Source of the DNA: Methanobacteriota archaeon
Lineage (GTDB): Archaea; Thermoplasmatota; Thermoplasmata; RBG-16-68-12
DNA: 47,498 nucleotides
NCBI GenBank assembly: GCA_005878615.1
Contig: VBLT01000106.1
Location: 1 to 47,498 of the forward strand
Direction: 5' to 3'
The notes beneath the pieces were generated by a model that saw only the letters and a program-made list of their open reading frames with translations, was not told the DNA's origin and did not search any database. The position numbers and the translations under genes are program-made. This document shows, piece after piece, positions 15,562-37,643 of this stretch. Position 1 is the first letter of the stretch, and each line of letters starts with the position of its first letter.

Positions 15562-16401
15562 ATGTCGATCTCGCTCCCGACCTACACGCGCCGCGAGATG
15601 CCCCTCCTCGGGCGGCGGCATCGCGTCCGCGCGATCATCACGACCGGGCTCCGTCGGGAATTCAAGCGCCCCGCGGTCCTCGTCGTCATCGGGATCGGCG
15701 TCGGCGTCACGATCATCACTTCCATCGTCGTCGTCCTCTTCGCGGGCGTGTTCCTCCAGGGCCAGCCGCTCGACCTGAGCTTCTTCTTCACGCCCGCGTC
15801 GAACGGTGCGATCCTCTTCTTCGTGACGCTGATGGCCTCCGTCGTCGGGTCCGCGCTGATCGCGGACGATCTCCAGTCGATGGCCTTGACGCTCTACCTG
15901 AGCCGACCGATCACGGAAGGGGACTACCTCGCCGCGAAAGCGGCGATCCTCGCCCCGATGATCTCGATGATCGCGGTCTTCCCGCTCGTCCTCACGCCCC
16001 TCGTCGCGGCCCTCCTCGGCTCGTTCTCCTGGACGATCGCACTCGAGGCCATTGGCCTCTCGTTCTTGATCGGCTCCCTCTTCACCGCGTTCTACACCGC
16101 CGCGACGTTGGCCCTCTCGAGCCTCACCCGTCGCAAGAGCTACGCGGCCGCGGGGGTCTTCGCCCTGACCTTCGGTCTGACCATCCCGGCGGAGATCCTC
16201 GCAGGCCCGCCTTTCAACAATCCAGCGGTGCTCTACGCATCGCCGTGGGAAAACTACCTCGCGGTGGCCCGCGCGGCCTTTGGCGCAACGGGCGCGCCGA
16301 TCGATTGGCGTTGGTCCCTCGCGATCCTGCTCGCGGCCACGGCGATCGCGGCCCTCGCCACCTACCTCCGGATGAAGTTCGTCGAGGTGGTGTCCGGATG
16401 A
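15562..16401 (+). CDS. ABC-2 type permease
   Basis: About 6 hydrophobic segments, LYLSRPI...Y..AK motif. Confidence 0.88.
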   Translation: MSISLPTYTRREMPLLGRRHRVRAIITTGLRREFKRPAVLVVIGIGVGVTIITSIVVVLFAGVFLQGQPLDLSFFFTPASNGAILFFVTLMASVVGSALIADDLQSMALTLYLSRPITEGDYLAAKAAILAPMISMIAVFPLVLTPLVAALLGSFSWTIALEAIGLSFLIGSLFTAFYTAATLALSSLTRRKSYAAAGVFALTFGLTIPAEILAGPPFNNPAVLYASPWENYLAVARAAFGATGAPIDWRWSLAILLAATAIAALATYLRMKFVEVVSG

Positions 16402-17318
16402 CCGGTGTCGTCGAGGCGGCGGGCATCTCGAAGTGGTACGGCGAGGTCCTCGGCCTCAACGGCTTTTCGGCCTCGTTCGGCCCCGGCATCACGGGCCTCG
16501 TCGGTCCGAATGGCGCCGGCAAGAGCACGTTGTTCAAGCTCCTCATCGGCCAGCTGCATCCGGACCAGGGGACCTTGCGGCTCCTGGGCGAGAATCCGTG
16601 GAACAACGTCCCGGTGAAGAGGCGCCTCGGCTACTGCCCCGAGCACAACACGCTCTACGGCTGGCTCACCGGGCAGCAGTTCGTGGAAGCCCTCCTGCGA
16701 CTCGACGGGATGCCGCGTTCGCAGGCCGAAAAGGCCGCGGAAGACGCCCTGAAGCTCGTCGGTCTCTCGAGCGCGGCGCAGCGTCCCACCCGGACCTATA
16801 GCCGCGGGATGCGCCAACGAGCGAAACTCGCCCAGGCGCTCGCCCACCGACCGGAGATCCTGATCCTCGACGAGCCGCTCTCGGGCGCCGACCCGCTGGC
16901 CCGGGTCCAGATCCTCCGGACGATCTCGGAATTCGCGAAGGCCGGCGGTCACGTCCTCATGTCGACCCATGTGCTCTACGAGATCGAGCGCGTCACCAAC
17001 AACATCGTCCTCATCAACAACGGCAAGGCGATCGCATCGGGTGACATCCGCTCGATCCGTGCCTTGATCGACGAACATCCGCACGCCGTGCGCCTTGAGA
17101 CGCCGCAGCCGCGACAGCTCGCCCAGGCCCTCGCGCGGATGGACCATATCGTCTCGCTCGAGATTCCCGAAGACGAGGCCCTGCTCGTCCGGACTCGCAA
17201 GCCCGATGCCTTCTACCGCGAGCTCCCCGCGATCGTGGCGGATACCCGGCTGGAGGTCCGTGGCCTCGAAAGCCCGGACGATAGCCTCGACGCGGTCTTC
17301 CGATATCTGGTGGGGTGA
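16398..17318 (+). CDS. ABC transporter ATP-binding protein
   Basis: GPNGAGKST, YSRGMRQR, LDEPLSG, STH. Confidence 0.95.
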   Translation: MTGVVEAAGISKWYGEVLGLNGFSASFGPGITGLVGPNGAGKSTLFKLLIGQLHPDQGTLRLLGENPWNNVPVKRRLGYCPEHNTLYGWLTGQQFVEALLRLDGMPRSQAEKAAEDALKLVGLSSAAQRPTRTYSRGMRQRAKLAQALAHRPEILILDEPLSGADPLARVQILRTISEFAKAGGHVLMSTHVLYEIERVTNNIVLINNGKAIASGDIRSIRALIDEHPHAVRLETPQPRQLAQALARMDHIVSLEIPEDEALLVRTRKPDAFYRELPAIVADTRLEVRGLESPDDSLDAVFRYLVG

Positions 17319-17322
17319 TCGG

Positions 17323-18102
17323 ACGGGCCTCGCGGAAGCGGTTCGCAAGGTCTGGGTCGTCACCGGCCTGACCTTGCGGTATTTGTTGGGGACGCGACGG
17401 ATCATCGCGATGGCCCTGCTCTCCGCGGTGCCACTCATTCTCGCGGTGGGACTGGCGGCGGCTCGCGTCGCAAGTTTCGACGTCCTGCAGCTCTTCCAAG
17501 CCGTGATGGTGCCGCTCTTCCTCCAGGTCGTCCTCATCTTCGTGACGTTGGTGAACGCGACCTCCCTCATTCGGGAGGAAATCGACGACAACACGCTTCC
17601 GTTCCTCCTGACCCGCCCGATCTCGAAGCCTGCGATCGCGACGTACAAGTATCTCGGCTACCTCGCCGCGGTCCTCATCCTGCTGGTCCCACCGCTGGTC
17701 GTGGCGTACGGCGTGACCGAGGCGTACGGCGGGCTTTCGTTCACCACCGACCTCGACGTGTTGGGAGGGTTCCTCCTCGTAACGGTCCTCGGGAGTGCAG
17801 CCTACGGGGGCCTCTTCCTTTTCATCTCGGTCCTCGTCCGCAAGCCGCTCGCGGTCGGCCTGCTCATCGGCTTCGTCTGGGAGTCGATCGTGGGATCGAT
17901 TCCGGGGGACGTCCCGAAACTCAGCGTCATCCACTACCTGCGGACGATCTTGAAAGGGACGATCACGGTCAGTCCCCTCGCCGGATACCGCACGGACCTT
18001 TCCGTCGCGACGGCCGTCGGCATCCTCATCGCGTTTTCGATCGCGATGGTCATCCTCACGATCGCAGTCTTCCAACAGATGGAGTTCCGTCAGAAGGCGT
18101 GA
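17323..18102 (+). CDS. ABC-2 type permease (probable ACG start)
   Basis: About 6 TM segments, EIDDNTLPFLLTRPISK motif; start uncertain. Confidence 0.85.
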   Translation, partial: TGLAEAVRKVWVVTGLTLRYLLGTRRIIAMALLSAVPLILAVGLAAARVASFDVLQLFQAVMVPLFLQVVLIFVTLVNATSLIREEIDDNTLPFLLTRPISKPAIATYKYLGYLAAVLILLVPPLVVAYGVTEAYGGLSFTTDLDVLGGFLLVTVLGSAAYGGLFLFISVLVRKPLAVGLLIGFVWESIVGSIPGDVPKLSVIHYLRTILKGTITVSPLAGYRTDLSVATAVGILIAFSIAMVILTIAVFQQMEFRQKA

Positions 18103-18139: not shown

Positions 18140-18220
18140 CCAATGAGATATATGGTCTATAGTCTTTATATTGTATTATCACATATATTCTTAAATAGTT
18201 AGTATGGTATACGACTCAAC
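18140..18220 (+). promoter_or_regulatory. AT-rich promoter/operator region upstream of Fic gene
   Basis: Strongly AT-rich tract in GC-rich DNA; TTAAATA about 27 nt before ATG 18224; imperfect inverted repeats. Confidence 0.55.
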
Positions 18221-18223
18221 TGG

Positions 18224-19156
18224 ATGAGGGAAGACATATTGGGTCCCCTGCGAGCGGAGTTGCTCACCCGCAGCGCCCTCGATTCCCTGCCCGAGGGCGT
18301 TTGGAAGCGCACCGGGGCACTCAACACATGGGGCACGAACGCGATCGAGGGGAACACCCTGAGTCGCACCGACGTAGAAAGAATCCTCCTGGAGCAGAAA
18401 TCCGTCGGGAACCGTCACCTTTCCGATGTGCTGGAGACGATCCAGCATGCAGCGGCCTTTGCAAATCTCCTCGAGCGGAGGAGGGACCCGATCCGGCTCA
18501 CCACGGTGTTGGAGCTGCATGAGGAAGTGTTCCGCGGCATCAAGGCGGACGCCGGTCAGTGGCGGCGGGTCAACGTCCGGATCGGGGGCATGAAGCGTGC
18601 GCCTCCTCGAATGGAAAGGATCCTGCACATGATGTCGACGTGGGAAGAGGAGTACAAAGAGCGAGACATGCACGGAGAGGATCCGTTCAGCCTCGGCGCC
18701 TGGATGCATTTCGACTTCGAGTCCGTTCATCCCTTCAGCGACGGCAACGGTCGAGTGGGACGGTTGCTCCTCAACCTGCATTTCCTCAAACACGGTTGGC
18801 CTCCGGTCCATATCCTCCCGCCGGACCGAGACCGCTACCTCCGCGCTCTCGTGCGGGGACACGACGGCAACCTCTCCGACTTAGAGGGTTTCCTCGTCGT
18901 GGCCATGGCCCGTTCCTTGCTCGACCTCCTGGATCAGGTCGGCACCCGCGAGGATGAACTCAAACCTCTGAACGCCCTCTCTAAACACTCGCCGTACTCG
19001 GCCAAGTATCTGAGTTTGCGCGCGAGCCAGGAGGAGCTCCCGGCTCTCAAGGCATCGGGAGATTGGCGCTCGAGTGAACGCGCCCTTCAGGCCTACCGCC
19101 ACCTCGTCGGCCGGACTACGAACCGACCGGGTCGGCCAGCCAAGGGCACCGGTTGA
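18224..19156 (+). CDS. Fic/DOC family protein
   Basis: Canonical HPFSDGNGRVGR; N-terminal TNAIEGNT inhibitory-type motif. Confidence 0.95.
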   Translation: MREDILGPLRAELLTRSALDSLPEGVWKRTGALNTWGTNAIEGNTLSRTDVERILLEQKSVGNRHLSDVLETIQHAAAFANLLERRRDPIRLTTVLELHEEVFRGIKADAGQWRRVNVRIGGMKRAPPRMERILHMMSTWEEEYKERDMHGEDPFSLGAWMHFDFESVHPFSDGNGRVGRLLLNLHFLKHGWPPVHILPPDRDRYLRALVRGHDGNLSDLEGFLVVAMARSLLDLLDQVGTREDELKPLNALSKHSPYSAKYLSLRASQEELPALKASGDWRSSERALQAYRHLVGRTTNRPGRPAKGTG

Positions 19157-22247: not shown

Positions 22248-22829
22248 TCACCGGTTCTCTTCGTACGCCTCCTGCAGCCAATTCAGCACCTCGGAGTCTA
22301 GGTCGTCAGGCGAACGGAGGCCCACTTGCACCGGCATCGTATCGTGGATCTTCGAGGGTTTCAGGCGCCCGCCTGGCTTCGCGCCCTCCAGACGCAAGGC
22401 CACGTCGACCCGGTCCTTCGCGGACGCCTGCACTCGCGCGAACGTCCGCTTGCGGGAGACGAGCGAAACGTAGGTCTTGCGGGCCTGGACGGTCACCTCG
22501 CCGAGGGAAGTCGCGGCCTCGATGATCGCATCGTAGAGGGGGCGGAGGGTCGGTCGGTCCGCGTATTGCCCGCGGACCAGTTCATCGGCGCTTGCTACCA
22601 TGAAGTCCGGATACCCGAAGCGTTCCATCACGAGCAACGATTGGGCATATCCGGTCACGCCCTGTTTCGTCAACCAGGTGCGCAAGTCCGCTTCGTTGCC
22701 CAGCCGCTCCTTCCGAATCCGTCGGTTCCATGCGTCGACACCCGACCCGGTCCGCTCCTTCAGGAGACGGGCGGACATCTCCCGCATCTGCTGCCAAGCT
22801 CGGGTCTCCGGCACGAAGATCGCCAGCAT
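22248..22829 (-). CDS. DUF4287/DUF5655-like conserved protein
   Basis: LKERTG...W, WL...G...GYAQ, RKTYVSL...RTFA, EVLNWLQEAYE. Confidence 0.7.
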   Translation of the reverse strand: MLAIFVPETRAWQQMREMSARLLKERTGSGVDAWNRRIRKERLGNEADLRTWLTKQGVTGYAQSLLVMERFGYPDFMVASADELVRGQYADRPTLRPLYDAIIEAATSLGEVTVQARKTYVSLVSRKRTFARVQASAKDRVDVALRLEGAKPGGRLKPSKIHDTMPVQVGLRSPDDLDSEVLNWLQEAYEENR

Positions 22830-22880
22830 CGGCCAAGGAACTGGAGTGGGAAATAGGTACGGCCCCTCTGCAATCGACCG

Positions 22881-23498
22881 TCAGGGGAGCCGCGACACCT
22901 CGGCGTAGCGGAAGCAACTCACCAGATGGTCGTTGACCATGCCCGCCGCTTGCATGAAGGCGTAGCAGATCGTCGACCCGACGAAGGAGAATCCCCGGGT
23001 CTTCAGGTCCGCGCTCAATGCATCCGATTCGCCCGTGCTTGCAGGAATTTGCCTCAGGCTTTTCCATCGGTTGGTCCGGGGTCGGCCCTGCACGAACCTC
23101 CAGAGGTAGGCATCGAAGCTGCCGAACTCCTTCCGAATGTCCAGGATCGACCGCGCGTTCCGAATCGCGGAGGCGATCTTGAGCCGATTTCGCACGATCC
23201 CGGGGTCGGCGAGCAGCCGCCGGACCTCCCGCGAATCGAACGAGGCCACGATCGTGGGATCGAAACCCAGAAAGGCCTTCCGATAGGCCTCGCGTTTCCT
23301 CAGGATCGTGAGCCAGGACAGGCCCGCTTGAGCGCCGTCGAGAATGAGGAACTCGAAGAGCGTTCGATCGTCGTGTTGAGGCACGCCCCATTCCGAGTCG
23401 TGATATTCCATCAAGAGGGGATCGGGCTCCGCCCAGGCGCATCGCGAAGCCCGTTTCCCGGTGCGCCGCCTCGAAGGCACGCGCTTCCTTAACGCCAC
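22881..23498 (-). CDS. tag: DNA-3-methyladenine glycosylase I
   Basis: RCAW, YHDSEWG.P, QAGLSW.TIL.KR, GIVRNRLKI, GF.FVG.TICYAFMQA.GMVNDH..SC. Confidence 0.95.
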   Translation of the reverse strand: MALRKRVPSRRRTGKRASRCAWAEPDPLLMEYHDSEWGVPQHDDRTLFEFLILDGAQAGLSWLTILRKREAYRKAFLGFDPTIVASFDSREVRRLLADPGIVRNRLKIASAIRNARSILDIRKEFGSFDAYLWRFVQGRPRTNRWKSLRQIPASTGESDALSADLKTRGFSFVGSTICYAFMQAAGMVNDHLVSCFRYAEVSRLP

Positions 23499-23712
23499 GT
23501 CCTACATAAGGAGCGGATCCAAGGGAAATCGGTGGTCCGCGACCTGGGCGGTCTCCCCCGACGTGGCGGACGTGGCCGGGGACCCGGTTCGATCCGTCAT
23601 CGCGACGTATGAGATCACGCATCCATGGAAAGCGAAGGACATCCATTGACGCACCTAGTTACCGCTAGCTCTGAAGCGTTCAAGGGGGCCGGCCCGATAC
23701 TCCGAATACGGG

Positions 23713-24369
23713 ATGATGGAACAGACGGCCGGCGGCCGTTCACGTAGGCCGCTCCTCGAGGTCCCCAAGTGGGACTCTCTCGTGCGGGCGCCGCCCCTCG
23801 GGTCGCACGTCCTACAGGTCTACGAGGAGCCAAGGCGACAAGTTGAGGTCGCCAGCCTTTTCGTGGCCGAGGCTTTGGAGAGGGGCGAGCGCGTCTGCTG
23901 CGTCGGTTCGACCCTCGATACCGCCCCGATTCGGAAGGCCCTGGGGGACGCGGGCTTCGACGTCGATTCCCGCCTTCGATCGCGGGCGCTGCTGATCGCC
24001 AATCGACTCGTGGTCAATGACGAACCGAAGAGACCCGAGGAAAACTCCCCGCAGTCGGTCACTCAATTTCTTCACGACACGTTCGAGGGTGTGCCGGATC
24101 GATATCCGGCGGTGCGCCTCTGGATAAATCCGACTGACCGCTTCTTCGAGGACGGGCGGTTTGAACAAGCGATCGCGTTCGAGCAATCGTGTCACGAGCG
24201 GCGGGATGTGTTTCCATGGTCTCTCCTTTGCGCGTACGATGCTCGGAAGCTGATACCCGAGCGACACGCCGCCGCCTTCTGGGATGTCCTGAGGAACCAC
24301 AGCCATCTCATCCCCGCGGGGGAGCTCGGGGTCGCGCTGGAATTGTTCCCAGACGGAGGCGGCCCGTGA
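23713..24369 (+). CDS. stand-alone MEDS-domain protein
   Basis: HVLQVYE, FVAEALERGER, FEQ, LLCAYD, VLRNHSH pattern. Confidence 0.75.
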   Translation: MMEQTAGGRSRRPLLEVPKWDSLVRAPPLGSHVLQVYEEPRRQVEVASLFVAEALERGERVCCVGSTLDTAPIRKALGDAGFDVDSRLRSRALLIANRLVVNDEPKRPEENSPQSVTQFLHDTFEGVPDRYPAVRLWINPTDRFFEDGRFEQAIAFEQSCHERRDVFPWSLLCAYDARKLIPERHAAAFWDVLRNHSHLIPAGELGVALELFPDGGGP

Positions 24370-26279: not shown

Positions 26280-27881
<1,602 letters not shown>

Positions 27882-28026
27882 CCGGTCGTTGCCCGATCGA
27901 GGCGTTCGCGTTTGGAACGTATCAGCCTTGCGTACAGGACGGGTGGCACATCGCTCCACCTGACGGCTCCAAGCGACCGGCGATCGCCGGGCCAACGTCC
28001 TTGGCGACCCCGACCATCCTCGGCCC

Positions 28027-29307
28027 ATGCAGGCCGTGGAGCCAAAACCTATTGCCTTCGAGGGAGATGAGCCGGCGACCGATGGAGAGCCGAGGGGCGA
28101 GACCGTGACGACCCAGGTGACGTTCGCAAGTCGCGCGCCCGGTCCGCTCCAAGACCTCACCGAACGGCGACCCGGACTCGCGATCGACGCGTATCCGCTG
28201 GGAGGCATGCTCCTCCTCCGGTTCCTCGGGGATGCCGAGGGAATCGAGGATGCGCCGGAACTCTTGGAGTCCGATCGTGAGGTCCTCTATCAGAACCGCT
28301 CGGGGAAGGAGGTCACGTTCCTCCTGAGCGGAGGCAGGCCGGAGGAGGAATCGATCGCGTCGCTGGCCGCCGAGAACGCGCACGTCCTCCCTCCGATCCG
28401 CTGGCAGCGGGGCGAGGCCCTCATCACCCTCCTCCTCGAGGACGGCGCGGACCCGCGGACAGTCCTCGACCGATTCCCCGAGGCGCGCCTCGTGTCCAAG
28501 CGCCGCCCGGTCGGGCGCCAGGGAGCCATCGGGGCCCTATCGTCCCCGCTGTTCCTCCCGAAGCTGACGGAGAAACAGGCCCGGGCGCTGCTCGCCGCCT
28601 TCGACGCGGGCTACTACGAATTCCCCCGGAACGTGACGACGGAGGACGTGAGCCTGTCCCTCGGGATCGCGCGGAGCACCTTCGAGCAGCACTTGAACCG
28701 CGCCGAGCACCACGTCATCCGTGCGATGGTGCCGATGGTCCGGATGCGATCCGGCCGGCCGCACGGGGAGGCCCTCGAGGTGTACTCCAAGTTCAGCCGC
28801 GAGCTCGGCCTGTACGTCCAGCTGGAGGTCCTGGGCGACCGCGTCGCCGCCGTGAGCCTCGCGAAGAAGGCTTCCCCGGCCAGCCTCGGGGAGGACCATC
28901 CCTACCTCGCGCAGATCCTCGAACACGTGCGGACGGGGGAGGGGGACCTGCGGGACATCCCGCTCCACCTCGAGGTCGGCCCCTTCGAACGCGAGGTCTT
29001 GGAATTCCTGCGGACGATCCCTCCGGGCACGACGATGACCTACGGGGAAGTGGCCCGGCGACTCGGCCGGCCGAACGCGTCGCGGGCGGTCGGGACCGCC
29101 TGTGCCCGCAACCCGGCGGTCATCGTGATCCCCTGCCACCGCGTGGTCCCGAAGGCCGGCGGCCTGGGTGAGTACTCCGCGATCGGCGGGCAGGAGACGA
29201 AGAAGAAGCTCCTGGTCGCGGAAGGCTTTGAGCTCGAAGCCGACCCATCTCGGGCGCGCCGCGATGCCTCGAAGGCGAAGAAGTCGCGCCGGCGTTCGTC
29301 GACTTGA
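28027..29307 (+). CDS. HTH-10 (Bat/DmsR-type) regulator fused to O6-methylguanine-DNA methyltransferase
   Basis: LTEKQ..AL..A...GYYEFPR.......A.STF..HL.RAE followed in frame by TIPPG...TYGEVA, RAVGTA...NP, IPCHRVV; start could be GTG 28105. Confidence 0.88.
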
Positions 29308-29318
29308 TCGGCCCGATG

Positions 29319-30695
29319 TCACGCCTGAGGTTGCGGGTAGAGGTAGCACGCGACCGAGTGACCGGGCGACACCTCGACCCAGGCCGGCTCCAGGGGCGGA
29401 GGAAATTCGAGGACGATCGACCCCTCTTCGAGGACGACCTCCCGGATCGCCTGGAAGGCCATCCCGCCCGCCTCGGCCGCCCGGCCTCGGACGAGGTCGG
29501 CGACGACTTGCCGTTGCGCCTCGCTCGGTCGCGATCCGCCGAAGAGCAGCCTCAGGCGATTTCCTTCCATAGAGACCTCGGAAAGGGCCGGTAGCGTCGA
29601 CGCGTGAGGGTTCCGGGAAGAGTCGAACAGATAGGCCGTTGCGGAGGCGGCGTCGCGCGGGCTCCAACCGCAGTGAGGCATGACCGCATTGCATCGGGTG
29701 TGGAAACGGCAGCCCGTCGGAGGGTCCACGGGGCTCGGCACGTCGCCGGGAAGCAGGATCTTCTCCCGTCGCCTCTTCGGGTCCGGCACAGGGACCGCGG
29801 ACAGCAACGCTTTCGTGTACGGATGCAGGGGGGACTCGAACAGCTCGCGCGTCGGGGCCTCTTCGACGATCCGGCCCAGATACATCACCGCGACCCGGTC
29901 GGCCATGTGGCGCACGACGCTCAAGTTGTGCGTGATCAGGAGATAGGTGAGGCCCTGCCGTCGCTGGATGTCCTTGAGCAAGTTGAGGATCTGGGCCTGC
30001 ACCGAGACATCGAGGGCGCTCGTCGGCTCGTCGAGCAGGAGGAATTCCGGCTCGGGGGCGAGGGCTCGGGCGATCGCGATCCGCTGCCGCTGGCCGCCGG
30101 AGAACTCGTGGGGGAACCGGTACAGGTGGTCCGGCCGCAGGCCGACCTCTTGGAGCAGCTGGGCGACGCGCTCCATCGCCTCGGGTCGGGTCATCTGGTT
30201 GTTGATGAGGATCGGCTCCGCGAGGATGTCCTTCACGAGCATCCGCGGATCGAGAGAGGTGAAGGGATCCTGGAATACCGGTTGCATCCGCCTCCGAAAC
30301 GGCTTGAAGGCCCGGGTCCGGAGGCGGGTGATCGCGTAGGGATCGAGGCCGTCCCCTTGAGGTCCCTTCGGACTACGCATCGCACCATCTTCCTCCGCGG
30401 TCCGCTGCCAGCGGTCTCTCGCGCTCGCGTACAGATTCGCGGGAACGTTAAACAGGACCTCGCCGGACGTCGGAGGGATGAGCCGCAACAGGAGTCGTCC
30501 GAGCGTGGTCTTCCCGCAGCCGCTCTCCCCGACGAGCGCGAGGGTCTCCCCGCGGCGAACGAACAGATCGACCCCGTCGACCGCCCGGACCTGGGCGATC
30601 GTCCGGCGGAGGACTCCGCCCTTCACCGGAAAGTGCTTCTTCAAGCCCACGGCGCCGACGAGGATCTCATGCGCCTGCCGGTCGCTCGGTAGCAC
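29319..30695 (-). CDS. oppF: oligopeptide/dipeptide ABC ATP-binding protein (OppF/DppF)
   Basis: [41 protein letters not shown]...VACY. Confidence 0.93.
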
Positions 30696-32196
30696 GGGAA
30701 CCCCCTTCCTCGTAGAGGAAACACGCGACGCGGCGGCTCTCCCCCTGGGGGAGCAAGCGAGGCTCCTCCGTCTTGCATCGCGCGAACGCATATTTGCAGC
30801 GAGGATGGAACCGGCAGCCGGACGGCGGGCTCAGGAGATCCGGCACCGTCCCCGCGATCGTCGGCAACGGCGCGTCAGTGGGCACCTCCTTGTCGAGGGA
30901 GACGATCGATTCGAGCAATCCTTCGGTGTATGGATGTAACGGATGCGCAAAGAGGTCGCCGACCGGCGCCTCCTCGACGATCTTGCCGGCATACATGACC
31001 GCGACCCGATCACACAATTCCGCGATCACCGCGAGGTCGTGGGTGATGTAGAGGATCGACGAATGGATCCGCTCCCGGAGGTCCCGGACCAGGGTAAGGA
31101 TCTGGGCCTGGGTCGTCACGTCGAGCGAGGTCGTCGGCTCGTCGGCAATCATGAGGGCCGGATCGCAGGCGAGCGCCATCGCGATCATCACCCGTTGCTG
31201 CATGCCGCCGCTGAGCTCGTGCGGGTACTCGTTGTACACTTTGTGAGGCTCCGAGATCCGCACGTTCTTCAGCTGTTCGAGTACGCGGCGGCGGGCCTCT
31301 TCCTCGATCGGCCGCATCAGGATTCGACGGAGGACCGGGATCGACATGACGAGACGGAAGAGGGCCTGGCGCGACCGGAACTGCGCTTGGGCTGCAAGCC
31401 GGCGACGATCGTCCTCTGAGGACGCGACCCCGGAGAGGACGCGCCATTCTCGCGTTATCCATTCCGACTCGAGGACGTCGAGTTCGCGGGCGAGCCGAAG
31501 GAACCATGCATGGCGAGTCTTCGTACGTTCCGAGAGGCGTCGGATCCTCGCGAGGCGTTCCTCCATCTGGAGGCCGGACCGATCGATGATCGCGGCGACC
31601 TTCTCCACCGGGAGGGCAGTCTGTAGACAGAAGTCGGCGAGGAGTCGCTCCCGCTGCGCCGCATCGGGATGCGTGACCGCCTCCTTGAACAGCTCGAGGT
31701 CCTCGTCGGTGATCTCTCTCCGAGCGAGCAGGCGGTCGCAGATCACCTTCCGCCGCTGGTAGATCAGGACCTCCGCGATCTGGTAGCCCACCGGCAGGAC
31801 CGGGTTCAAGGAAGACATCGGTTCCTGGAAGATCATCGAGACCTCGCGGCCGCGGATCTTGGCCATCCGCGCGCGGTGCCTCCGGAGGGCCGTGTCGTTC
31901 CGGACGAGCTTCGGCTTGCCGCCGAGTCCGCGGCGCACGGTCGCCTCGTTCTCGCTCCCCGCGAGGAGGTTGATCCCGCGGAACCAAATGGCGCCCGAGG
32001 CGATCCGGCCGGGCGGGGTCGGGATCAGGTACATGATCGAGAGCGCGGTGACGGACTTCCCGCACCCGCTCTCGCCGACCAGGCCGAGGACTTCCCCCTC
32101 CTGGATGTCGAAGTCGACGCCGTCCGCGGCCCGGATCACCCCGCGGGGCGTCAGGAACTCCGTCTGCAATCCCTGGACGGACAGCAAGGGGGACAG
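30667..32196 (-). CDS. oppD: oligopeptide/dipeptide ABC ATP-binding protein (OppD/DppD) with large insertion
   Basis: [42 protein letters not shown]; start CTG 32196 or TTG 32187. Confidence 0.93.
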
Positions 32197-32200
32197 TCCC

Positions 32201-33157
32201 TCACCTCCGGAGCCTCGGGTCGAGGACGTCGCGCAGGCCGTCCCCCAGCAGGTTGACGCCCACGGTAAAGATCACGAGCGCGAGCCCCGGGAATAGGATC
32301 GTCCACGGATACGATGTGGGCTCGCTGCCGAACCCGTAGAAGATGAGGGCCCCGAGTTCCGGCAGGTATCCGCTGTGTGGGACGAAGCCGATGAAGATCA
32401 ACGCGGCGAAGATCTGGATGACGACGCCCAGGTCCAGGGACACCTGAACGAAGACGGGGGCCAGCGTGTTCGGCAAGATGTGGCGGAACATGATCCGCAG
32501 ATCCGATGCGCCGGCCGCGCGCGCCGCCTCGACGAACATGTTCGCCTTCACGGCCAGGACCTGCGAGCGGACGAGCCGCGCGTACGGGGGCCACCAGAGG
32601 ATCAGAAGCGAGAGGTTCAGCGTCGTGAAGTCCCGGGAGATGACGTAGGCCACCGCGATCGCGAAGACGAGGAACGGGATCGAATAAGCGACGTCCGTCG
32701 AGCGCATGAGCCCTTCGTCGAAGAGGCCGCCTTTGTACCCGGCGACGAGTCCGACAAGCATGCCGACGATCGCGCCGCCGAGGACGACGATGCTCGAGTA
32801 GTAAAGGTCGATGCGGATCGCCTTGAAGATTGCCATGCCGAGATCGATTCCCGGATAGGTGGTGCCGAACCAGGAGCCTGGCGTCCCGTTGCCCCACCAC
32901 CAGGGCGGCTGGGGGTACGCGGTCGTGAAGTTCGTCTGGAGGACGTCCCGGTCCGGCAGGAACGACGCCGCGATCGCGATGCCGACGTACAGGAGCGTGA
33001 TCAGGAGGCCGGCGGCCGCGAGCGGGCGCTTCAGGAGAAGGCGCAAGGTGAGGGAGTACTCGTCGAGCCTCCGACGCAACCCGCGCCAGAGCTCGGCCCT
33101 CCCGCTCGCGCTCCGGATCCCGCGGCGGACCTCGACATGGGCTCCCATGTTCCTCAC
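32201..33157 (-). CDS. oppC: peptide ABC permease (OppC/DppC)
   Basis: FGT..PG.D, EAARAAGAS..RIMFRHILPN (EAA motif), NLLGDGLRDVLDPR. Confidence 0.93.
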   Translation of the reverse strand: MRNMGAHVEVRRGIRSASGRAELWRGLRRRLDEYSLTLRLLLKRPLAAAGLLITLLYVGIAIAASFLPDRDVLQTNFTTAYPQPPWWWGNGTPGSWFGTTYPGIDLGMAIFKAIRIDLYYSSIVVLGGAIVGMLVGLVAGYKGGLFDEGLMRSTDVAYSIPFLVFAIAVAYVISRDFTTLNLSLLILWWPPYARLVRSQVLAVKANMFVEAARAAGASDLRIMFRHILPNTLAPVFVQVSLDLGVVIQIFAALIFIGFVPHSGYLPELGALIFYGFGSEPTSYPWTILFPGLALVIFTVGVNLLGDGLRDVLDPRLRR

Positions 33158-34215
33158 AGCGTGATCCTGGGGTCCAGGTACGCGTAGATGATGTCCACGA
33201 CGAGATTCGCGAGCACGAGGAACAGGGCGAAGATCAGGGTCGTACCGAGGATCGCCGCGAGGTCATGGCTGATGATCGCGACGGTCGCCCATCGTCCGAT
33301 TCCGTTCCAGACGAACACGTCCTCGACGAGGACCACGCCGCCGAGGAGTCCCGCGAACAGGAGGCCGACGACGGTCGTGACCGGGAGCAGCGCATTGCGC
33401 CGGATGTGCTTGCGGATCACGACGGACTCCGGGAGGCCCTTCGACCACGCCGTCTTGACGTACTCCTGTCCCATCGCGTCGACCATCCCGGAACGGACCA
33501 TCCGGAGGATGACGCCGAGGAATCCGTACGTGAGGGCGAGGGTCGGCAAGATGAGATGTTGGAGCGCGTTCCAGAAGATCTCGCCGTCTCCGTTCAACGC
33601 GGCATCGAGGATGAGGAAGTGGGTCGGTTTCGATTCGAACACGCCGGTGCCGACCAACCACGCGCGCCCGCTCAAGATGCCCGGACTCACCTGTCCGTTG
33701 ATTGGCAACGACGGGACGAACCGGACCGCGAAAATCTGGAGGAGCAGGGCGAGCCAGAAGAGGGGCATCGAATACCCGGTGAGGGCGACGACTCGGGTCA
33801 CGTGATCGGAGATTCGGTCCTTTCGAACCGCGGAGATGGTGCCCAGGGGGATGCCGAGGAAGGTGGCCAAGAACGTCGCCGCGATCGCGAGCTCGACCGT
33901 CGGGGGGAAGAACAGGACCAGGGCCGCGGTGACGGTCCCATGGTACAGTTCCGTGTTCGTGAAGCCCCAGTCTCCGCGGAGGAGGAGTCCGAGGTAGTAG
34001 ACGTACTGAACAGGAATCGGATCGTCGAGATGGAGGAGGGCGCGGGCCGCGGCGATCTGCTGGTCTCTCGGAATCGGGCTTCGTAGGTTCAGGTAGGTCT
34101 CGACAAGTTGATCGACGGGGACGGCGCGGCTCAAGACGAACGTGATCAACGTGACGCCGAGCAAAGTGGGAATTAAGAGGAGGAGTCGACGCACGATGAA
34201 CAGCAGCAGGCGCAT
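33154..34215 (-). CDS. oppB: peptide ABC permease (OppB/DppB)
   Basis: RRLL..IPTLLGV, HLILP.L.L, EYVKTA..KGL, NL.VDI.YAYLDPRI. Confidence 0.93.
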   Translation of the reverse strand: MRLLLFIVRRLLLLIPTLLGVTLITFVLSRAVPVDQLVETYLNLRSPIPRDQQIAAARALLHLDDPIPVQYVYYLGLLLRGDWGFTNTELYHGTVTAALVLFFPPTVELAIAATFLATFLGIPLGTISAVRKDRISDHVTRVVALTGYSMPLFWLALLLQIFAVRFVPSLPINGQVSPGILSGRAWLVGTGVFESKPTHFLILDAALNGDGEIFWNALQHLILPTLALTYGFLGVILRMVRSGMVDAMGQEYVKTAWSKGLPESVVIRKHIRRNALLPVTTVVGLLFAGLLGGVVLVEDVFVWNGIGRWATVAIISHDLAAILGTTLIFALFLVLANLVVDIIYAYLDPRITL

Positions 34216-34362
34216 CGGGTCATTGCGACCATCCCGCGCGGTTGTATATCCTTTGCGCTCTCCCGGCGGAGAGGCCAGTTCCTCGTGCAGGTTTAAGTCG
34301 GTCACGCCTCATGACGACCCGGGCACGCCCACTGTGGGTGGGCCCACCGACGAGGCGCCGCC

Positions 34363-34677
34363 GTGGACCGAGTCCGGATCACCGAAGGACCGCCGACCGG
34401 TTCTTCCCGCGCGACGTTCTCGGTCCGGCATCCCGAAGTCGCCTACGTCTTCGGCGACATGGTTCGAGGATTGTACGTAGTCGGCTGCCTGGCCGCGAAC
34501 CTCTTCGTCGCCTTGCAGGCACACCTATCGCTTCCGACCGCGGACGCCATCCTGTTGCCGCTCCTCGCGGCAGGATTCTTCGCGCTCGCCTATCTCGAAC
34601 TCCGCCTTTATCGCGTCCTCTGGCCCGCCTCGCGCCGGCGGCGAATCGCGCAGATCGTGGAAGGTCGGACTCGCTAG
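34363..34677 (+). CDS. small 2-TM membrane protein
   Basis: 104 aa, two hydrophobic helices and a basic tail; fills the oppA-oppB gap on the opposite strand. Confidence 0.6.
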   Translation: MDRVRITEGPPTGSSRATFSVRHPEVAYVFGDMVRGLYVVGCLAANLFVALQAHLSLPTADAILLPLLAAGFFALAYLELRLYRVLWPASRRRRIAQIVEGRTR

Positions 34678-37502
34678 GGCTCCTCATCCCGCCTTCGGAC
34701 GGCGAGGAGGCCGAGCGTCGCAATCAACGGCGTAATGCCGAATCCTCCCTGGGTGCCCGGGCCTGCAGAACTCGACGTCGCGACGGCACCTTGGATCGTC
34801 CCGGACTTCGCCAGCAGGTTGTAGAGGATGTCCGTCCCTCCGAGCATCGGGTTGCTCTCGAGCGGGATGCCCTGGATCCACGTGCGGTACACGAAGAAGC
34901 TGTACTGCTGCTGGGCGGGCACGTAGATCGTCAGATTCAGCATCGCCTCGCGCTGCGCCTTCCGGGACAGGTCGACGACGACATTGATGTCCGTCTCCGA
35001 CAAAGTGGCGTTGATCCAGTCCGAGATGTTCTGAGCGGCCCGGGACTGGGCGGTCTCGCCGAGCGAGGCGAGATAGCTGATGTTGAAGCCGTTCGCGGCC
35101 GGGTACGTCCCGCCGTATTCCGTAGCGTTGTTGCCCGGCTCGAGCATCGGGTACGTGTAGTCCGTCGGGTACGGGTAGTCGGGCAGCCAGCCGAGGAACC
35201 AAAGGGACATGCGGTTCGCGTGCGGGTTCATCTCCGCGATGATGTCGTGGAACGACATCGTCCGCGTGTTGATCACGATGTTCCCGGTCGGGCCGAGCTT
35301 CTGCAGGTTGTCTCCCCATGAACGGGCCGCGGCCAAGTTCACCGGGTCCGCCGTTGGAACGACGATCGTCAGGGTGAAGGACGCGCTCGCGGGGCCCCCG
35401 TGGCTCGTCACGAACTTCGACGTGTTGTAGTACTGCCGCGCGCGCGCCATGTCGAACACGTTGTAGCTCGAGAGGTTCTCGTACCCGACCATCCCGTTCG
35501 GAATGATCCCGTTAAAGGAGTCCGCGAACTTCGCGTTGAAGTGCTTGTTCTCCACGATGTTGTCGAGGTAGTTCTGGAAGTCGTAGGCGTAGAAGAACGC
35601 CTTCCGCATGTTGAGGTCAGCGAAGAAGTCCCTGGGCACCGTGTTGTCGGCGCTGGGCGCAATCTCCATGTTGAAGTTCCACCAGAACAAGTTGAGCGTC
35701 GGCACGAACTCGATATGGACGAGCCCGTCCGTCTGCATCCGTCGCATCACGTCGAAGCGGTTGCTCGGGTTGTACGTCGTGATGTCGGCCTGACCTGATT
35801 CCAGGGAGAGTTCGCGGGTGGACGGCGATTCCACGTACTGGAGGAACACGCGCTCGACCGTCGGTGCGGGAATCCCGGGCAACGGCTGGAAATTCGAGTT
35901 CCGTTTCATGGCGACCGACTCGCCCGGCACGACGTAGTCGACGGTGTACGGCCCGGAGCCCATTGTCTTGTCCCGCCAGGCAGGGACATAGTTGACGAGG
36001 TTGCCGTACTTCTGGTAGGCCGTGAAACCGGCCGGGGTCCACGCAAGGGCGGGGCCGTTCGCCTCGAGCCATTTCCAGCTCACGATCGAGGAACCGAGCG
36101 GATCGGCGATGATCTGGAACCACAGCAGCGCGGGCACCGACGCCGTGAGGTGGAAGGTGACGGTGTTGCTTGCGTTGTCGACCGACACGGCGTTGTTCAC
36201 GTTGGCGAAGGTCAGGTCCGCAGGGCTGAGGCTCGGCAAGAGGTACTGGGACTGAATCCACCCGCTGGTGCCCGGCGTCCCGAAGACGAAGAGCATCGTC
36301 CGAGTGAAGGAGTACTTCACATCCCACGGTGTGACGGAGGTTCCATCCGCGAACTTCGCGCCGGGCCGAATGTGGAACGTGTAGTTCTTGTGGTCCGAGC
36401 TGATCGAGCCGTCGGTCGTGGACGGGATCTTGTCCGCGAGGACGGGCACGAATGCGTCGGACTTCGTCCCGTCGTACCACAGAAGGGTCTGGTACACGTT
36501 CGCGATCGTTTCGAACCCGACCGATTCGTAGTCAGCGCCCGGATCGAGCGTCGTGTAACTGCCGGTCACCGCCTCCTGGACGACGATCAGTCCCGGATTG
36601 ACGACGCTTCCCGAGTACGTGAGGAGCTTGTACGTCCCCACCGCGATCGTCTGGCCGACCACGGTCGTGCGGATCTGAAACGGCATGACGTTCGTTAGAG
36701 GCGTCGAAGAGCAACCCGAAATGTTGCAGGTGGTCCTCATCGTCTGATTCTGGGTCGCGACCGCCAAGGCCAACTGGTAGATGCCGGCGGAGGCGTAGGT
36801 GTGATTGATTCGGAGCGCCTGGTCCGAAATGTTGATCAGGGGCGCGGCGCCATCGCCGTAGGAGAAGGAGAGCGCCTGGACCGCCCAGGAATAGTTGTCC
36901 CATTGCGTCGTCCCAAGAGACGGCGTGGTTTTAACACTGAAGGCGTAGGACGGGGCTTGCTGGACGCTGCCCACGGCAGCGATCCACTTGCCGGCAGCGA
37001 TGAGGGGAGCTCCCGCCGCCGAGGCCGTCCGGTTGATGGCGATGACCCCAAGGCTGTCTCGGGTGGTAAGGTCCTTTCGAGGACCGACCGTCATGACGTA
37101 GAGGGCATCGAAGTTATTGACGCTCGACCCTCCGCTCAGATTCGCCTGGCTTCCGACGAAAAAGGTCCCCCCCGTCGCGTAGGCATGGGACGTGGACGTG
37201 CTTGTCCCCGACGCCGTCGTCCCGTCGCCGAAGATCCAATTGACGGCGGTCGCGGTGCCACCTGTGATCTTCGCATCAAACGCGACCGCCTCGGTCGCGG
37301 TGGCGAAAACGGTCGTCGTCTCGACCCTCAGGGAGACAGTCTGGCTCCGAAGGAGCAAGTACGCGCCGCCGGCGGCGGAGGCGATGAGGATGACGACGAT
37401 CACGACGATGATCCACTTCCGCCGAGACGACGCCCGCGGAGCGGGCGAAACGGGCGGTTCTGAAACGGGCACAGGCGACGCGGACATGGGTCCTTGCGCC
37501 AA
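34674..37502 (-). CDS. oppA: peptide ABC substrate-binding protein (family 5) with N-terminal PKD-like domains
   Basis: N-terminal TM, WIFGDG and FSYGDG PKD motifs, TLDPG.DYES, GSGPY, GW.PDY..P.DY, C-terminal hydrophobic tail plus RRR. Confidence 0.9.
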   Translation of the reverse strand: MAQGPMSASPVPVSEPPVSPAPRASSRRKWIIVVIVVILIASAAGGAYLLLRSQTVSLRVETTTVFATATEAVAFDAKITGGTATAVNWIFGDGTTASGTSTSTSHAYATGGTFFVGSQANLSGGSSVNNFDALYVMTVGPRKDLTTRDSLGVIAINRTASAAGAPLIAAGKWIAAVGSVQQAPSYAFSVKTTPSLGTTQWDNYSWAVQALSFSYGDGAAPLINISDQALRINHTYASAGIYQLALAVATQNQTMRTTCNISGCSSTPLTNVMPFQIRTTVVGQTIAVGTYKLLTYSGSVVNPGLIVVQEAVTGSYTTLDPGADYESVGFETIANVYQTLLWYDGTKSDAFVPVLADKIPSTTDGSISSDHKNYTFHIRPGAKFADGTSVTPWDVKYSFTRTMLFVFGTPGTSGWIQSQYLLPSLSPADLTFANVNNAVSVDNASNTVTFHLTASVPALLWFQIIADPLGSSIVSWKWLEANGPALAWTPAGFTAYQKYGNLVNYVPAWRDKTMGSGPYTVDYVVPGESVAMKRNSNFQPLPGIPAPTVERVFLQYVESPSTRELSLESGQADITTYNPSNRFDVMRRMQTDGLVHIEFVPTLNLFWWNFNMEIAPSADNTVPRDFFADLNMRKAFFYAYDFQNYLDNIVENKHFNAKFADSFNGIIPNGMVGYENLSSYNVFDMARARQYYNTSKFVTSHGGPASASFTLTIVVPTADPVNLAAARSWGDNLQKLGPTGNIVINTRTMSFHDIIAEMNPHANRMSLWFLGWLPDYPYPTDYTYPMLEPGNNATEYGGTYPAANGFNISYLASLGETAQSRAAQNISDWINATLSETDINVVVDLSRKAQREAMLNLTIYVPAQQQYSFFVYRTWIQGIPLESNPMLGGTDILYNLLAKSGTIQGAVATSSSAGPGTQGGFGITPLIATLGLLAVRRRDEEP

Positions 37503-37643
37503 AGTACCTCCTCCGGACGAGTCCCGCCCAATGCCGTTCCCCTACTCGAAGGTTTTGGCACATCGACCGGAGGGTCCCGCTCTGTCGTACCAATCGGGAC
37601 ATCAAGGCAAAGGATTCAATGTTGCCTATCCATGCGGGTCCCC

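Follow-up and report, generated by a model that had tools for sequence, protein, structure and literature searches.

An HTH_10-Ogt fusion conserved in Thermoplasmata, with a nearly genome-unique palindrome at its own promoter: a candidate self-regulating alkyltransferase

How archaea control the repair of alkylated DNA is largely unknown. In Saccharolobus, ogt is induced by MMS, and the available part of that review names no regulator (PMC7216122); the adaptive-response regulators Ada and Cada2 are described as bacterial, archaea going unmentioned (PMC10957082). Could an archaeal alkyltransferase act as its own regulator? The question is raised by a gene within a 47,498-nt stretch of DNA from a Methanobacteriota archaeon (contig VBLT01000106.1; the window), in which an earlier note, made from the sequence alone, had read an uninterrupted frame joining a putative sensor region of ~150 aa to an HTH-10 and a full Ogt domain with PCHRV, and had proposed an analogue of E. 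coli Ada. The frame is indeed open throughout, with zero internal stops and 426 encoded amino acids, and the sequence motifs quoted in that note are found in the protein (Table 1). Both domains lie above their Pfam cut-offs, HTH_10 (PF04967) with E 3.1e-18 and 65.7 bits against 23.1, and DNA_binding_1 (PF01035) with E 9.6e-30 and 102.7 bits against 27; the NCBIfam model TIGR00589 (ogt) adds 89.2 bits, its cut-off being 46.4.

The fusion is genuine, and it is conserved among relatives. In run X11, whose sample carries no mark as a possible source, a single DNA contig of 2513 nt spans the junction and covers positions 27600-29400 with five differences and no gap, so misassembly does not account for it. 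Nor are the two parts separate genes throughout the relatives, an outcome for which the earlier note had allowed: PF01035 and PF04967 occur together in 110 of the 120 best near-length database relatives and, for the Ogt part, in all of its 120 best longer relatives. The fused junction is encoded by 35 species-representative Thermoplasmata genomes, and both halves were present in 18/301 genomes of a class sample, with three families represented. A split two-gene form was considered and rejected, as none of 44 loci encoding stand-alone relatives of the N-terminal module has an Ogt gene within 6 kb. At the RNA level, metatranscriptome contigs from two libraries of one study fall within the gene, and one of them (28701-29079) joins HTH_10 to Ogt, DNA carry-over being possible throughout; these are assembled contigs of RNA libraries and not mapped transcription starts. 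No RNA contig covered the intergenic region or malate synthase, a gap to which no weight attaches. Uncultured Thermoplasmata of soil and sediment commonly carry the family, and the database relatives whose names were inspected are annotated as methyltransferase and nothing more. In line with the earlier note, to whose author no HTH-10/Ogt version was known, a search of openly accessible papers found no description of this architecture; the same search found nothing on HVO_A0563 or Ta1207.

Table 1. Coordinates of the fusion gene, the parts of its product and its upstream elements (positions in the window; res, residues).
Feature	Position	Strand	Basis
Regulator-Ogt fusion gene, stop codon included	28027..29307	+	ORF, Pfam, NCBIfam, relatives
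Variable N-terminal extension, res 1-27	28027..28107	+	0/27 columns invariant
N-domain, res 28-165, predicted double ferredoxin-like sandwich, divergent HVO_A0563_N/BAT-type	28108..28521	+	hhalign, structure model
HTH_10 DNA-binding domain, res 180-231	28564..28719	+	Pfam, own-genome scan
Linker and putative Ogt N-terminal domain, res 232-318, unusually conserved	28720..28980	+	Invariant columns, 1sfe alignment
Ogt catalytic/DNA-binding domain, res 319-400	28981..29226	+	Pfam, NCBIfam, PDB matches
Codon of acceptor Cys370	29134-29136	+	Within Ogt catalytic domain
Variable basic C-terminal tail, res 401-426	29227..29304	+	0/26 columns invariant
14-bp perfect palindrome CCGGCGATCGCCGG, candidate operator of the fused HTH_10 module	27977..27990	.	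Conserved upstream, PWM
BRE-like element GCCAACG	27991..27997	+	Position directly 5' of TATA-like box
TATA-like box TCCTTGGC, weak in the window	27998..28005	+	Aligned upstream regions, position

The two ends of the protein vary across the family: the N-terminal extension is missing or frame-closed in several relatives, and K/R-rich C-terminal tails occur in most. Between them, the Ogt part has the features of an intact alkyltransferase. PCHRV (residues 369-373), which contains the acceptor Cys370, is invariant in all 37 aligned family members, as are Y339, R353, N362 and E399 (thus, in full, Y339, R353, N362, P369, C370, H371, R372, V373 and E399). The four residues outside PCHRV, which we take from human AGT to be the TYGE-motif tyrosine, the Arg finger, the Asn hinge and the charge-relay glutamate, align inside conserved blocks of M. 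tuberculosis OGT. PDB matches of this part have E values of 1e-16 to 1e-13. The putative Ogt N-domain has no match to a Pfam N-domain model, but the alignment to Ada-C (1sfe) extends into this region from query residue 280 (query residues 280-395 paired with chain positions 53-170), strands are predicted with low pLDDT at residues 263-279, and a VIA alignment comprises 111 residues (model residues 262-373, Z 5.5, rmsd 4.1). This domain lies beside the HTH and is under almost the same constraint as the catalytic one, with 23 of 71 columns (residues 248-318) invariant versus 29 of 82. In the fusion's own genome (85% complete), no other PF01035 protein with a Cys was found; the second match to this model is to a domain that lacks the Cys and is joined to endonuclease V. 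Judged by these sequence features, the fusion is probably the organism's working O6-alkylguanine-DNA alkyltransferase and a predicted suicide enzyme. It shares a predicted two-domain alkyltransferase and all catalytic residues with ordinary Ogt/AGT proteins (M. tuberculosis OGT 4wxd, Ada-C 1sfe, S. solfataricus OGT 4zye), but differs from them in ~245 extra N-terminal residues, in a second predicted sequence-specific DNA-binding domain and in the unusual conservation of its Ogt N-domain. A tree built on the Ogt part groups the fused proteins in one clade (100/99), with three unfused Ogts from Thermoplasmata outside it. Natural alkyltransferase fusions have been described before, namely AGT-EndoV in Ferroplasma, ATL-EndoV in archaea and AGT-2 of C. 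elegans with its histone-like tail, and in the accessible part of that source their partners are repair or chromatin modules, with no HTH_10 among them (PMC10779285). Like the present fusion, they add a DNA-directed function to the alkyltransferase, and an ATL-like-EndoV protein is encoded in the same genome.

The N-terminal half corresponds to a known type of regulator. Profile comparison (hhalign) with 26 stand-alone HVO_A0563_N + HTH_10 proteins, in which PF24280 is present in all six that were scanned, aligned residues 26-242 over 217 columns (probability 99.95%, E 1.8e-37), which identifies this segment, at the level of sequence, as a full member of that family. The PF24280 model itself had no match on the fusion protein at E 0.1, so its N-domain represents a divergent HVO_A0563_N branch. 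The ~150-aa region that the earlier note had put forward as a putative sensor is predicted to be a real folded domain (pLDDT 80-93 at residues 28-160; mean pLDDT 89.9 for the N-module model) and is conserved, with eight invariant columns plus recognizable motifs. Its best PDB match is Ta1207 (5m86_A; Z 9.3, rmsd 3.2-3.8 and 132 aligned residues in two comparisons), whereas a sequence search for a solved structure of the N-module family yielded nothing below E 0.18. The modeled HTH_10 fold resembles sigma region 4 and LuxR-type HTH domains (Z 6-7.8), and the other weak Pfam HTH matches on the protein are to sigma-70 region 4 models only. The stand-alone PF24280 + PF04967 regulators have the same order of N-domain and HTH_10, but they end ~10-30 residues past the HTH or carry PAS/GAF sensors. 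Likewise, Bat-like proteins share a BAT-like part and the HTH with the fusion (the BAT domain matches residues ~105-235), but Bat/DmsR-type sensor-activators place PAS/GAF domains before BAT + HTH_10, and neither PAS nor GAF had a Pfam match on the fusion protein. The full-length AlphaFold2 model (mean pLDDT 59.4) is confident in the N-domain only, and contacts between HTH and Ogt therefore cannot be read from it. A homodimer prediction for residues 25-240 scored 0.23 against a mark of 0.42, a result that bears neither way on dimerization.

If the N-terminal half is a regulator, where does it act? The upstream region offers one candidate, a palindrome that is conserved, nearly unique in the genome and evenly spaced from the start codon across loci, and that constitutes a new observation. 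CCGGC-N4-GCCGG occurs upstream of the fusion gene in 32/32 loci, irrespective of the neighboring gene (24 exact, seven with one mismatch and one with two). It abuts the BRE/TATA-like element ~36 nt before the ATG in the window, and an in-frame ATG follows it by 36-39 nt in 24 of the 32 loci. In archaeal promoters the BRE sits directly 5' of the TATA box, and this is the basis of the BRE call here; its CAA is nearly invariant (PWM columns +16 to +18: C 25/29, A 28/29, A 29/29), and the TATA-like box reads TCTTTATC, CATATCAT or TGATATCA in deeper relatives. The center of this box lies ~25 nt before the ATG, which implies that the mRNA is probably leaderless.

With the family PWM, the fusion gene's promoter scores 30.1 bits, and the next sites in the genome, both inside coding frames, score 19.3 and 17.6. 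In the whole genomes of five relatives, the extended motif CCGGCNNNNGCCGGNNCAA has six matches, five of them at the fusion promoter and the sixth at one further site, with zero matches for the reversed control; the motif is also missing at five loci where Ogt is unfused. The window's own genome shows no enrichment of the generic core CCGGC-N4-GCCGG (20 found versus 25.6 expected). Near-uniqueness rests on the extended motif, because the looser pattern CCGRCNNNNGCCGGNNNAA used in five deep-clade genomes performs at chance level (16 matches versus 14 for its control). A second palindrome just after the gene at one locus (L033) is missing from its close relative L034 and was treated as a chance occurrence.

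The placement of the palindrome bears on the target that the earlier note had suggested. The divergent neighbor (26280..27881, minus strand) is a malate synthase gene (Pfam MS_N, MS_TIM-barrel and MS_C), as that note had it, but the gap between the two genes is 145 nt (27882-28026) and not 146. As a target, however, malate synthase is not supported: the neighborhood with aceB, whose conservation that note had named as a check, extends to only four of 35 related loci besides the window, and the palindrome's center lies ~100 nt from the malate synthase start as opposed to its fixed ~36 nt from the fusion start. The link to malate synthase is incidental. Clustering of ORFs within 3 kb at 36 loci and the window revealed no family-wide neighbor besides the gene itself and an antisense shadow frame. 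At 4.5 kb from the fusion gene there is a gene for 3-methyladenine glycosylase I, and five other loci have one within 6 kb.

An Ada-like master regulator, sensing methylation damage and controlling other genes with malate synthase among its targets, is accordingly very improbable. The order of a sensor-like domain, HTH and alkyltransferase does parallel Ada, the palindrome does fall in the intergenic region shared with malate synthase in the window, and the glycosylase gene lies nearby. Yet the malate synthase neighborhood is confined to the few loci just given, no second site of comparable score occurs in the genome, only one further pattern match occurs in the five relatives' genomes, and the glycosylase gene showed no motif. 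Thus, neither the PWM scan of the own genome nor the search of the five relatives' genomes detected a regulon beyond the gene itself, although at 85% completeness of the former further targets may have been missed.

The proposed likeness to Ada holds in part. The three-part architecture is as described: like E. coli Ada, the fusion is one polypeptide in which a regulatory region at the N terminus is followed by an HTH and then by an alkyltransferase with PCHR, predicted to have two domains; it has a (candidate) binding site just upstream of its own core promoter; and repair capacity would be expected to be induced after alkylation. What does not carry over is the Ada-type switch, the AraC-type HTH (HTH_10 in the fusion) and the Ada equivalog score. 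Homology is limited to the alkyltransferase part, NF011964 reaching 71.5 bits, far below its cut-off of 345, with residues 294-399 paired to model positions 246-348 only. The switch of Ada is a cysteine in its Zn-Cys4 N-domain, which serves as a methylphosphotriester acceptor; the fusion has no Pfam match to such a domain, and its only cysteines, as read from the sequence, are C359 and C370. Since residues 1-358 contain none, an Ada-type N-terminal methyl acceptor is excluded. Additionally, Ada commands a regulon whereas the only detectable target of the fusion is its own gene, and the fusion is transcribed by the archaeal TBP/TFB machinery. Given the absence of an N-terminal cysteine, the different HTH and the sub-threshold NF011964 score, the protein is a variation on the Ada idea and not an Ada homologue, and at most a convergent functional analogue of Ada.

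The conserved palindrome at the gene's own promoter makes a regulatory role of the fusion protein likely, and points to the fused HTH_10, probably as a dimer, as the presumptive binder, the link between the two being correlative. Alternatively, the palindrome could be the site of another trans-acting factor or part of the core promoter, the N-module serving only to tether or dimerize Ogt on DNA, where tethering could raise the efficiency of lesion search. This is improbable: the palindrome accompanies the fusion at 32/32 loci and is missing at the five unfused Ogt loci, and HTH_10 modules with such an N-domain otherwise occur as one-component regulators. Evidence in favor of another factor comes from an Ogt-only derivative (locus L041 in genome G161), which has lost residues ~20-245 and keeps the Ogt frame intact behind the promoter together with 9/10 specified palindrome positions, in a genome where no close HTH_10 twin was found (best match 27% over the module and 30-34% in the HTH). 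Its single palindrome change, however, falls on a position that is C in 29/29 unique sites. This one Ogt-only gene with family-level identity is not an unfused ancestor; it nests inside the fused clade (within a six-row clade supported at 98/95 in the Ogt-part tree) and was therefore taken as a secondary deletion. In contrast to the palindrome, the stretch between it and the ATG shares only ~67% identity with that of the derivative's nearest fused relative (hand count). Either the deletion is recent or a second factor also reads the site.

With HTH_10 as the candidate binder, a one-gene feedback loop, in which a suicide Ogt fused to a regulator controls its own promoter and alkylation raises transcription, has slightly better than an even chance of being correct. 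The HTH_10 module, probably dimeric, would bind a single genomic site, the palindrome upstream of its own BRE and TATA box; because this site lies at its own promoter, that promoter would read out how much enzyme is present and in what state, and the protein would control its own replacement. Transfer of an alkyl group to Cys370, the presumed signal, would raise transcription of the fusion gene, and the alkylated residue might do so by altering the contacts of the fused module with the operator or with transcription factors, or by destabilizing the whole protein. Regarding the latter, alkylation loosens and destabilizes alkyltransferases. The available part of a review describes alkylated forms as destabilized and degraded, and reports for Saccharolobus that after MMS ogt mRNA rises while the protein declines (PMC7216122). 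The narrower version, a minimal one-protein adaptive response in which alkylation of Cys370 itself switches HTH_10 at the single own-promoter operator, is plausible but falls somewhat short of an even chance.

Two versions of the loop would lead to the same outcome. The alkylated form could be an activator, as in Ada, or the unalkylated form could be an autorepressor whose action is lost on alkylation. Activation is slightly favored by the position of the site upstream of the BRE, where archaeal activators, including those of the Bat type, act. The bop UAS is reportedly at about -52 to -39. Bat and DmsR, the studied proteins with the same HTH, are positive regulators, and the UAS is located 5' of bop, according to the accessible part of the source (PMC1447603). 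The Ogt-only derivative pulls the other way, in that an intact Ogt frame persists behind its promoter, as would be expected more of a repressor than of an obligate activator.

The operator evidence is identical if Ogt is autoregulated without sensing alkylation, be it through a ligand or partner signal received by the N-domain, as is presumably the case in the stand-alone regulators, or through plain negative autoregulation, with the fusion fixing a 1:1 dosage. In support of such an arrangement, the N-module belongs in full to a family of stand-alone regulators that work without Ogt, and the N-domain is well folded and conserved, as its eight invariant columns attest. It is nevertheless rather unlikely: it leaves unaccounted for the persistence of the fusion across three families, the constrained Ogt N-domain beside the HTH and the absence of Ogt within 6 kb of any of the 44 stand-alone loci, and the active pool would be misreported if spent, alkylated protein stayed on the operator. 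The feedback loop driven by alkylation can also be set beside RbkR, an archaeal enzyme that controls genes of its own pathway and consists of a riboflavin kinase and an HTH, as described in the accessible part of its report (PMC5397151). Both are enzymes fused to a DNA-binding domain, but RbkR senses a metabolite and turns over, whereas the Ogt fusion would be consumed stoichiometrically, so that as a regulator it would report its own depletion.

The fusion family thus offers a self-contained candidate for the control of alkylation repair in archaea, made up of a single protein, a single 14-bp operator and a single promoter. As stated in the available part of the source (PMC7216122), derivatives of O6-benzylguanine react with alkyltransferases, which is the chemistry of the SNAP-tag, and the fusion could on this account be a natural, small-molecule-switchable archaeal transcription factor. 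If alkylation of Cys370 does switch HTH_10 as in the narrower version, no alkylation-sensing transcription factor would have been described in Archaea before this one, which would be a convergent counterpart of Ada, with the O6-alkylguanine acceptor site, and not a phosphotriester acceptor, as its sensor. Should alkylation of the cysteine control DNA binding or stability, the use of a repair protein as a damage sensor would have had a second, independent origin, and the family would embody a simple design for topping up an enzyme that is consumed stoichiometrically.

The gene is a single reading frame in which an archaeal regulator module precedes an O6-alkylguanine transferase (Ogt; see table). 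The earlier note had described one uninterrupted ORF with an HTH_10 domain, a full Ogt domain and the active-site PCHRV, a description borne out by the Pfam calls and by the NCBIfam ogt model, which agrees with them. The fusion is real. Among 5.8 billion proteins searched, both Pfam domains occur in 110 of the best 120 near-length relatives (typically 390-440 aa); the remaining ten (271-396 aa; HTH_10 alone in eight, DNA_binding_1 alone in two) mostly lie below the typical length and are probably fragments. With only the Ogt part as query, the best 120 "longer" relatives likewise all have both domains, and the only database name seen for relatives is "methylated-DNA--[protein]-cysteine S-methyltransferase". 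On contigs representing one genome per species, the fused junction is encoded in 35 loci (L006-L040; 43-95% identity) whose hosts are titled as Thermoplasmata or Methanomassiliicoccales-type MAGs. Both halves are carried by 18 of 301 genomes sampled across the class: these belong to the window's own genus (10/12, the window's own genome aside) and to two other families, one in the same order and one in a different order, and most other genomes of the sample encode an ordinary 160-200-aa Ogt. An assembly error at the junction, for which the earlier note had allowed, is countered by a DNA contig that covers 27600-29400 without gaps and comes from a sample bearing no possible-source mark. Additionally, an RNA-library contig joins HTH_10 to Ogt (28701-29079), with DNA carry-over possible.

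Coordinates of the features discussed (window positions unless a residue, locus or contig is named; G000 is the window's own genome, G161 that of locus L041)
Feature	Position	Strand	Remarks
Fusion ORF	28027..29307	+	single open frame, 426 aa
HTH_10	residues 180-231		Pfam E 3.1e-18, far over cut-off
DNA_binding_1 (alkyltransferase domain)	residues 319-400		Pfam E 9.6e-30, far over cut-off
Malate synthase, divergent from fusion gene	26280..27881	-	
Palindrome CCGGC-N4-GCCGG	27977-27990		
Ogt-only derivative	L041:5897-6486 (= G161:C6, also L096)		
ATL-EndoV-type protein, 305 aa	G000 contig C86:30751-31668 (= L002:1489-2406)	+	PF01035 42 bits, PF04493 188.6 bits

What the family conserves is an entire one-component regulator joined to an Ogt that appears entire and has its catalytic residues intact. 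Across the 37 members of alignment A1, P369, C370, H371, R372 and V373 (the PCHRV, residues 369-373) are invariant, as are Y339, R353, N362 and E399, which we take to correspond to Tyr, Arg finger, Asn hinge and Glu in known alkyltransferases; the fusion protein contains two cysteines only, C359 and C370. The Ogt part matches the structures of M. tuberculosis OGT, Ada-C and an archaeal OGT (E 1e-16 to 1e-13), and since the Ada-C alignment begins at residue 280, an Ogt N-domain is probably present. Invariant columns number 0/27 in the N-extension, 8/138 in the N-domain, 7/52 in HTH_10, 23/71 in Ogt-N, 29/82 in Ogt-C and 0/26 in the tail; the Ogt-N figure is notable because Ogt N-domains are, as a rule, poorly conserved. 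The N-extension (28027-28107, residues 1-27) is variable, yet a K-P/A-K/I word recurs, and the equally variable C-terminal tail (29227-29304, residues 401-426) is K/R-rich in most relatives, which may confer unspecific DNA affinity.

The window's own genome (85% complete) contains two PF01035 matches, the fusion protein and a 305-aa protein in which an alkyltransferase-like domain with Ala at the acceptor Cys position is fused to endonuclease V, a type mentioned in a passage of a review (PMC10779285). The fusion protein is thus the predicted working Ogt of this 85%-complete genome.

The fusion protein belongs at once to the Ogt family and to a regulator family characterized by HVO_A0563_N (PF24280) and HTH_10. 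A set of 26 stand-alone proteins (~212-267 aa) aligns to residues 26-242 (hhalign probability 99.95%, E 1.8e-37, 217 columns), and both domains were found in all six of these scanned with Pfam; Bat-like PAS/GAF proteins match residues ~105-235 via their BAT domain. The confident model of residues 25-245 (pLDDT 89.9) predicts a double ferredoxin-like sandwich ahead of a sigma-region-4/LuxR-like HTH. Among PDB structures the best match to the model is Ta1207, a Thermoplasma protein (Z 9.3, rmsd 3.8, 132 aligned), for which a literature search found no paper, and several sigma region 4 and LuxR-type domains resemble the modelled HTH (Z 6-7.8). Elsewhere in the window's own genome, a contig edge (C49:2-256, L003) cuts into a stand-alone HTH_10 regulator, leaving its C-terminal end, with 46% identity in the HTH; its frame stops 30 residues past the HTH, which rules out a second fusion.

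Alignment of the 260 nt before the conserved start region revealed the palindrome in all 32 loci with upstream DNA (24 exact, 7 with one mismatch, 1 with two), and a separate analysis found it in L036, another fused locus. It is followed by a near-invariant CAA (25, 28 and 29 of 29 unique sites) and then by a TATA-like box, weak TCCTTGGC in the window's clade and TCTTTATC, CATATCAT or TGATATCA in deeper clades, with an in-frame ATG 36-39 nt past the palindrome in 24/32 loci. The TATA-like centre lies ~25 nt before the ATG, a distance that implies a putative leaderless transcript and would place the palindrome at ~-50 to -37, flush with the BRE; these elements are presumed from position and general knowledge of promoters. 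In L015, L016 and L019, ~114 nt separate palindrome and main start, the conserved ATG at +37 is out of frame with the main ORF and a stop lies 9 nt ahead of the Met corresponding to residue 27, so that the variable N-extension has turned into either a leader of ~77 nt or a short ORF upstream.

The palindrome is conserved, nearly genome-unique and fixed in place in the fusion gene's own promoter. The window's genome has no excess of the generic core (20 found, 25.6 expected), and a 25-nt PWM scores 30.1 bits at this promoter, the next sites (19.3 and 17.6) lying inside coding frames. Genome-wide scans of five relatives found the extended pattern six times in all, five of them at the fusion promoter (reversed control, 0), and 29/34 near-matches in 323 kb of related loci are this promoter site; the motif is absent from five loci with ordinary Ogt genes. 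A self-regulating, alkylation-coupled loop is favored with somewhat better than even confidence: the fused HTH_10 would bind the palindrome at its own promoter, so that the enzyme would regulate its own synthesis.

A natural variant bears on this reading. L041, in a 97%-complete genome, encodes a 179-aa Ogt with 66% identity to fusion residues 247-403 and without residues ~20-245 (N-domain and HTH_10). In the Ogt-part tree the fused proteins form a clade (100/99) apart from three unfused Ogts, and L041 is nested inside a fused subclade (98/95); therefore, it has secondarily lost the N-module. Its promoter is of the same type (palindrome, CAA, CCATTATC, ATG at +37), with a spacer only ~67% identical to that of the nearest relative (hand count). 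The explanation would be a recent deletion or a further factor that recognizes the site as well. That another factor reads the palindrome is improbable overall: L041 keeps 9/10 specified positions and no close HTH_10 twin was found in its genome, but the single change hits a position occupied by C in 29/29 unique sites.

Within the self-regulating loop, alkylation of Cys370 would be the input signal, because alkyltransferases are consumed 1:1 and are destabilized and degraded once alkylated, because a spent protein left on the operator would give a false reading of how much active enzyme there is, because the Ogt N-domain beside the HTH is unusually constrained, and because in Saccharolobus MMS is followed by more ogt mRNA but less of the protein (passages of PMC7216122). 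Autoregulation without alkylation sensing is unlikely in our estimate, though less so than another factor at the site. The protein could be an alkylation-activated activator, favored by a site that lies upstream of the BRE and by Bat and DmsR being activators (as passages of PMC1447603 state), or an autorepressor relieved by alkylation, favored by L041, where loss of a repressor accounts better than loss of an obligate activator for an Ogt frame still intact under this promoter.

The earlier note had proposed the divergent malate synthase as a target; the divergence is confirmed, with a gap of 145 nt rather than 146 bp. An Ada-like regulator of several genes, malate synthase included, is very improbable: the loci in which that gene adjoins the fusion gene are confined to the window and the four relatives nearest to it (L006-L009), and its adjacency is judged incidental. 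L010 and L035 instead have, directly upstream of the fusion gene, the gene that the window carries past malate synthase; no neighbor family common to the whole fusion family was found, and the fusion gene behaves as an independent unit. At 4.5 kb from it lies a 3-methyladenine DNA glycosylase I gene (22884-23501, -; PF03352, E 7e-82), followed by a DUF5655 gene (22251-22880), and homologues of the glycosylase gene occur <6 kb from the fusion in five other loci (L012, L013, L014, L019, L035); the palindrome motif was not found at the glycosylase gene, and the proximity may reflect two alkylation-repair genes in loose synteny within the genus. Divergent from the glycosylase gene is a MEDS-domain gene (23659-24366, +; PF14417, the DcmR-type sensory domain of methanogens/methylotrophs). 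A convergent oligopeptide-type ABC transporter operon (29322-37541, -; two ATPases, two permeases, a 955-aa solute-binding protein with PKD domains) is shared at the fusion gene only by the window, L006 and L035. Farther off lie a Fic/DOC-family gene (18203-19153, +; PF02661, E 5e-20) after an ABC-2 type transporter cluster (14455-18099), and, near each other, genes for uroporphyrinogen-III synthase (HemD; 5185-5970, +) and a chlorite-dismutase-family protein (6847-7689, +), possibly, from its family name, a HemQ-type coproporphyrin haem decarboxylase.

The fusion protein resembles E. coli Ada in outline of working but is not a member of its family: its Ada equivalog score is 71.5 bits against a cut-off of 345, it lacks the Zn-Cys4 domain and any cysteine before residue 359, and it has HTH_10 where Ada has AraC. 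Literature searches found nothing on an HTH_10-Ogt architecture; the natural alkyltransferase fusions named in passages of PMC10779285 have EndoV or a histone-like tail as partner, Ada being named as well and an HTH_10 fusion being absent there, and the account of Cada2, from which bacterial adaptive-response regulators are seen to have diversified, leaves archaea unmentioned in its text (PMC10957082). Of the proposed alkylation-responsive regulator, the link to malate synthase falls away and a regulator-Ogt fusion stands that is, from the palindrome at its own promoter, probably self-regulating; in an alkylation-coupled loop, whether as activator or as autorepressor, it would be induced after damage.
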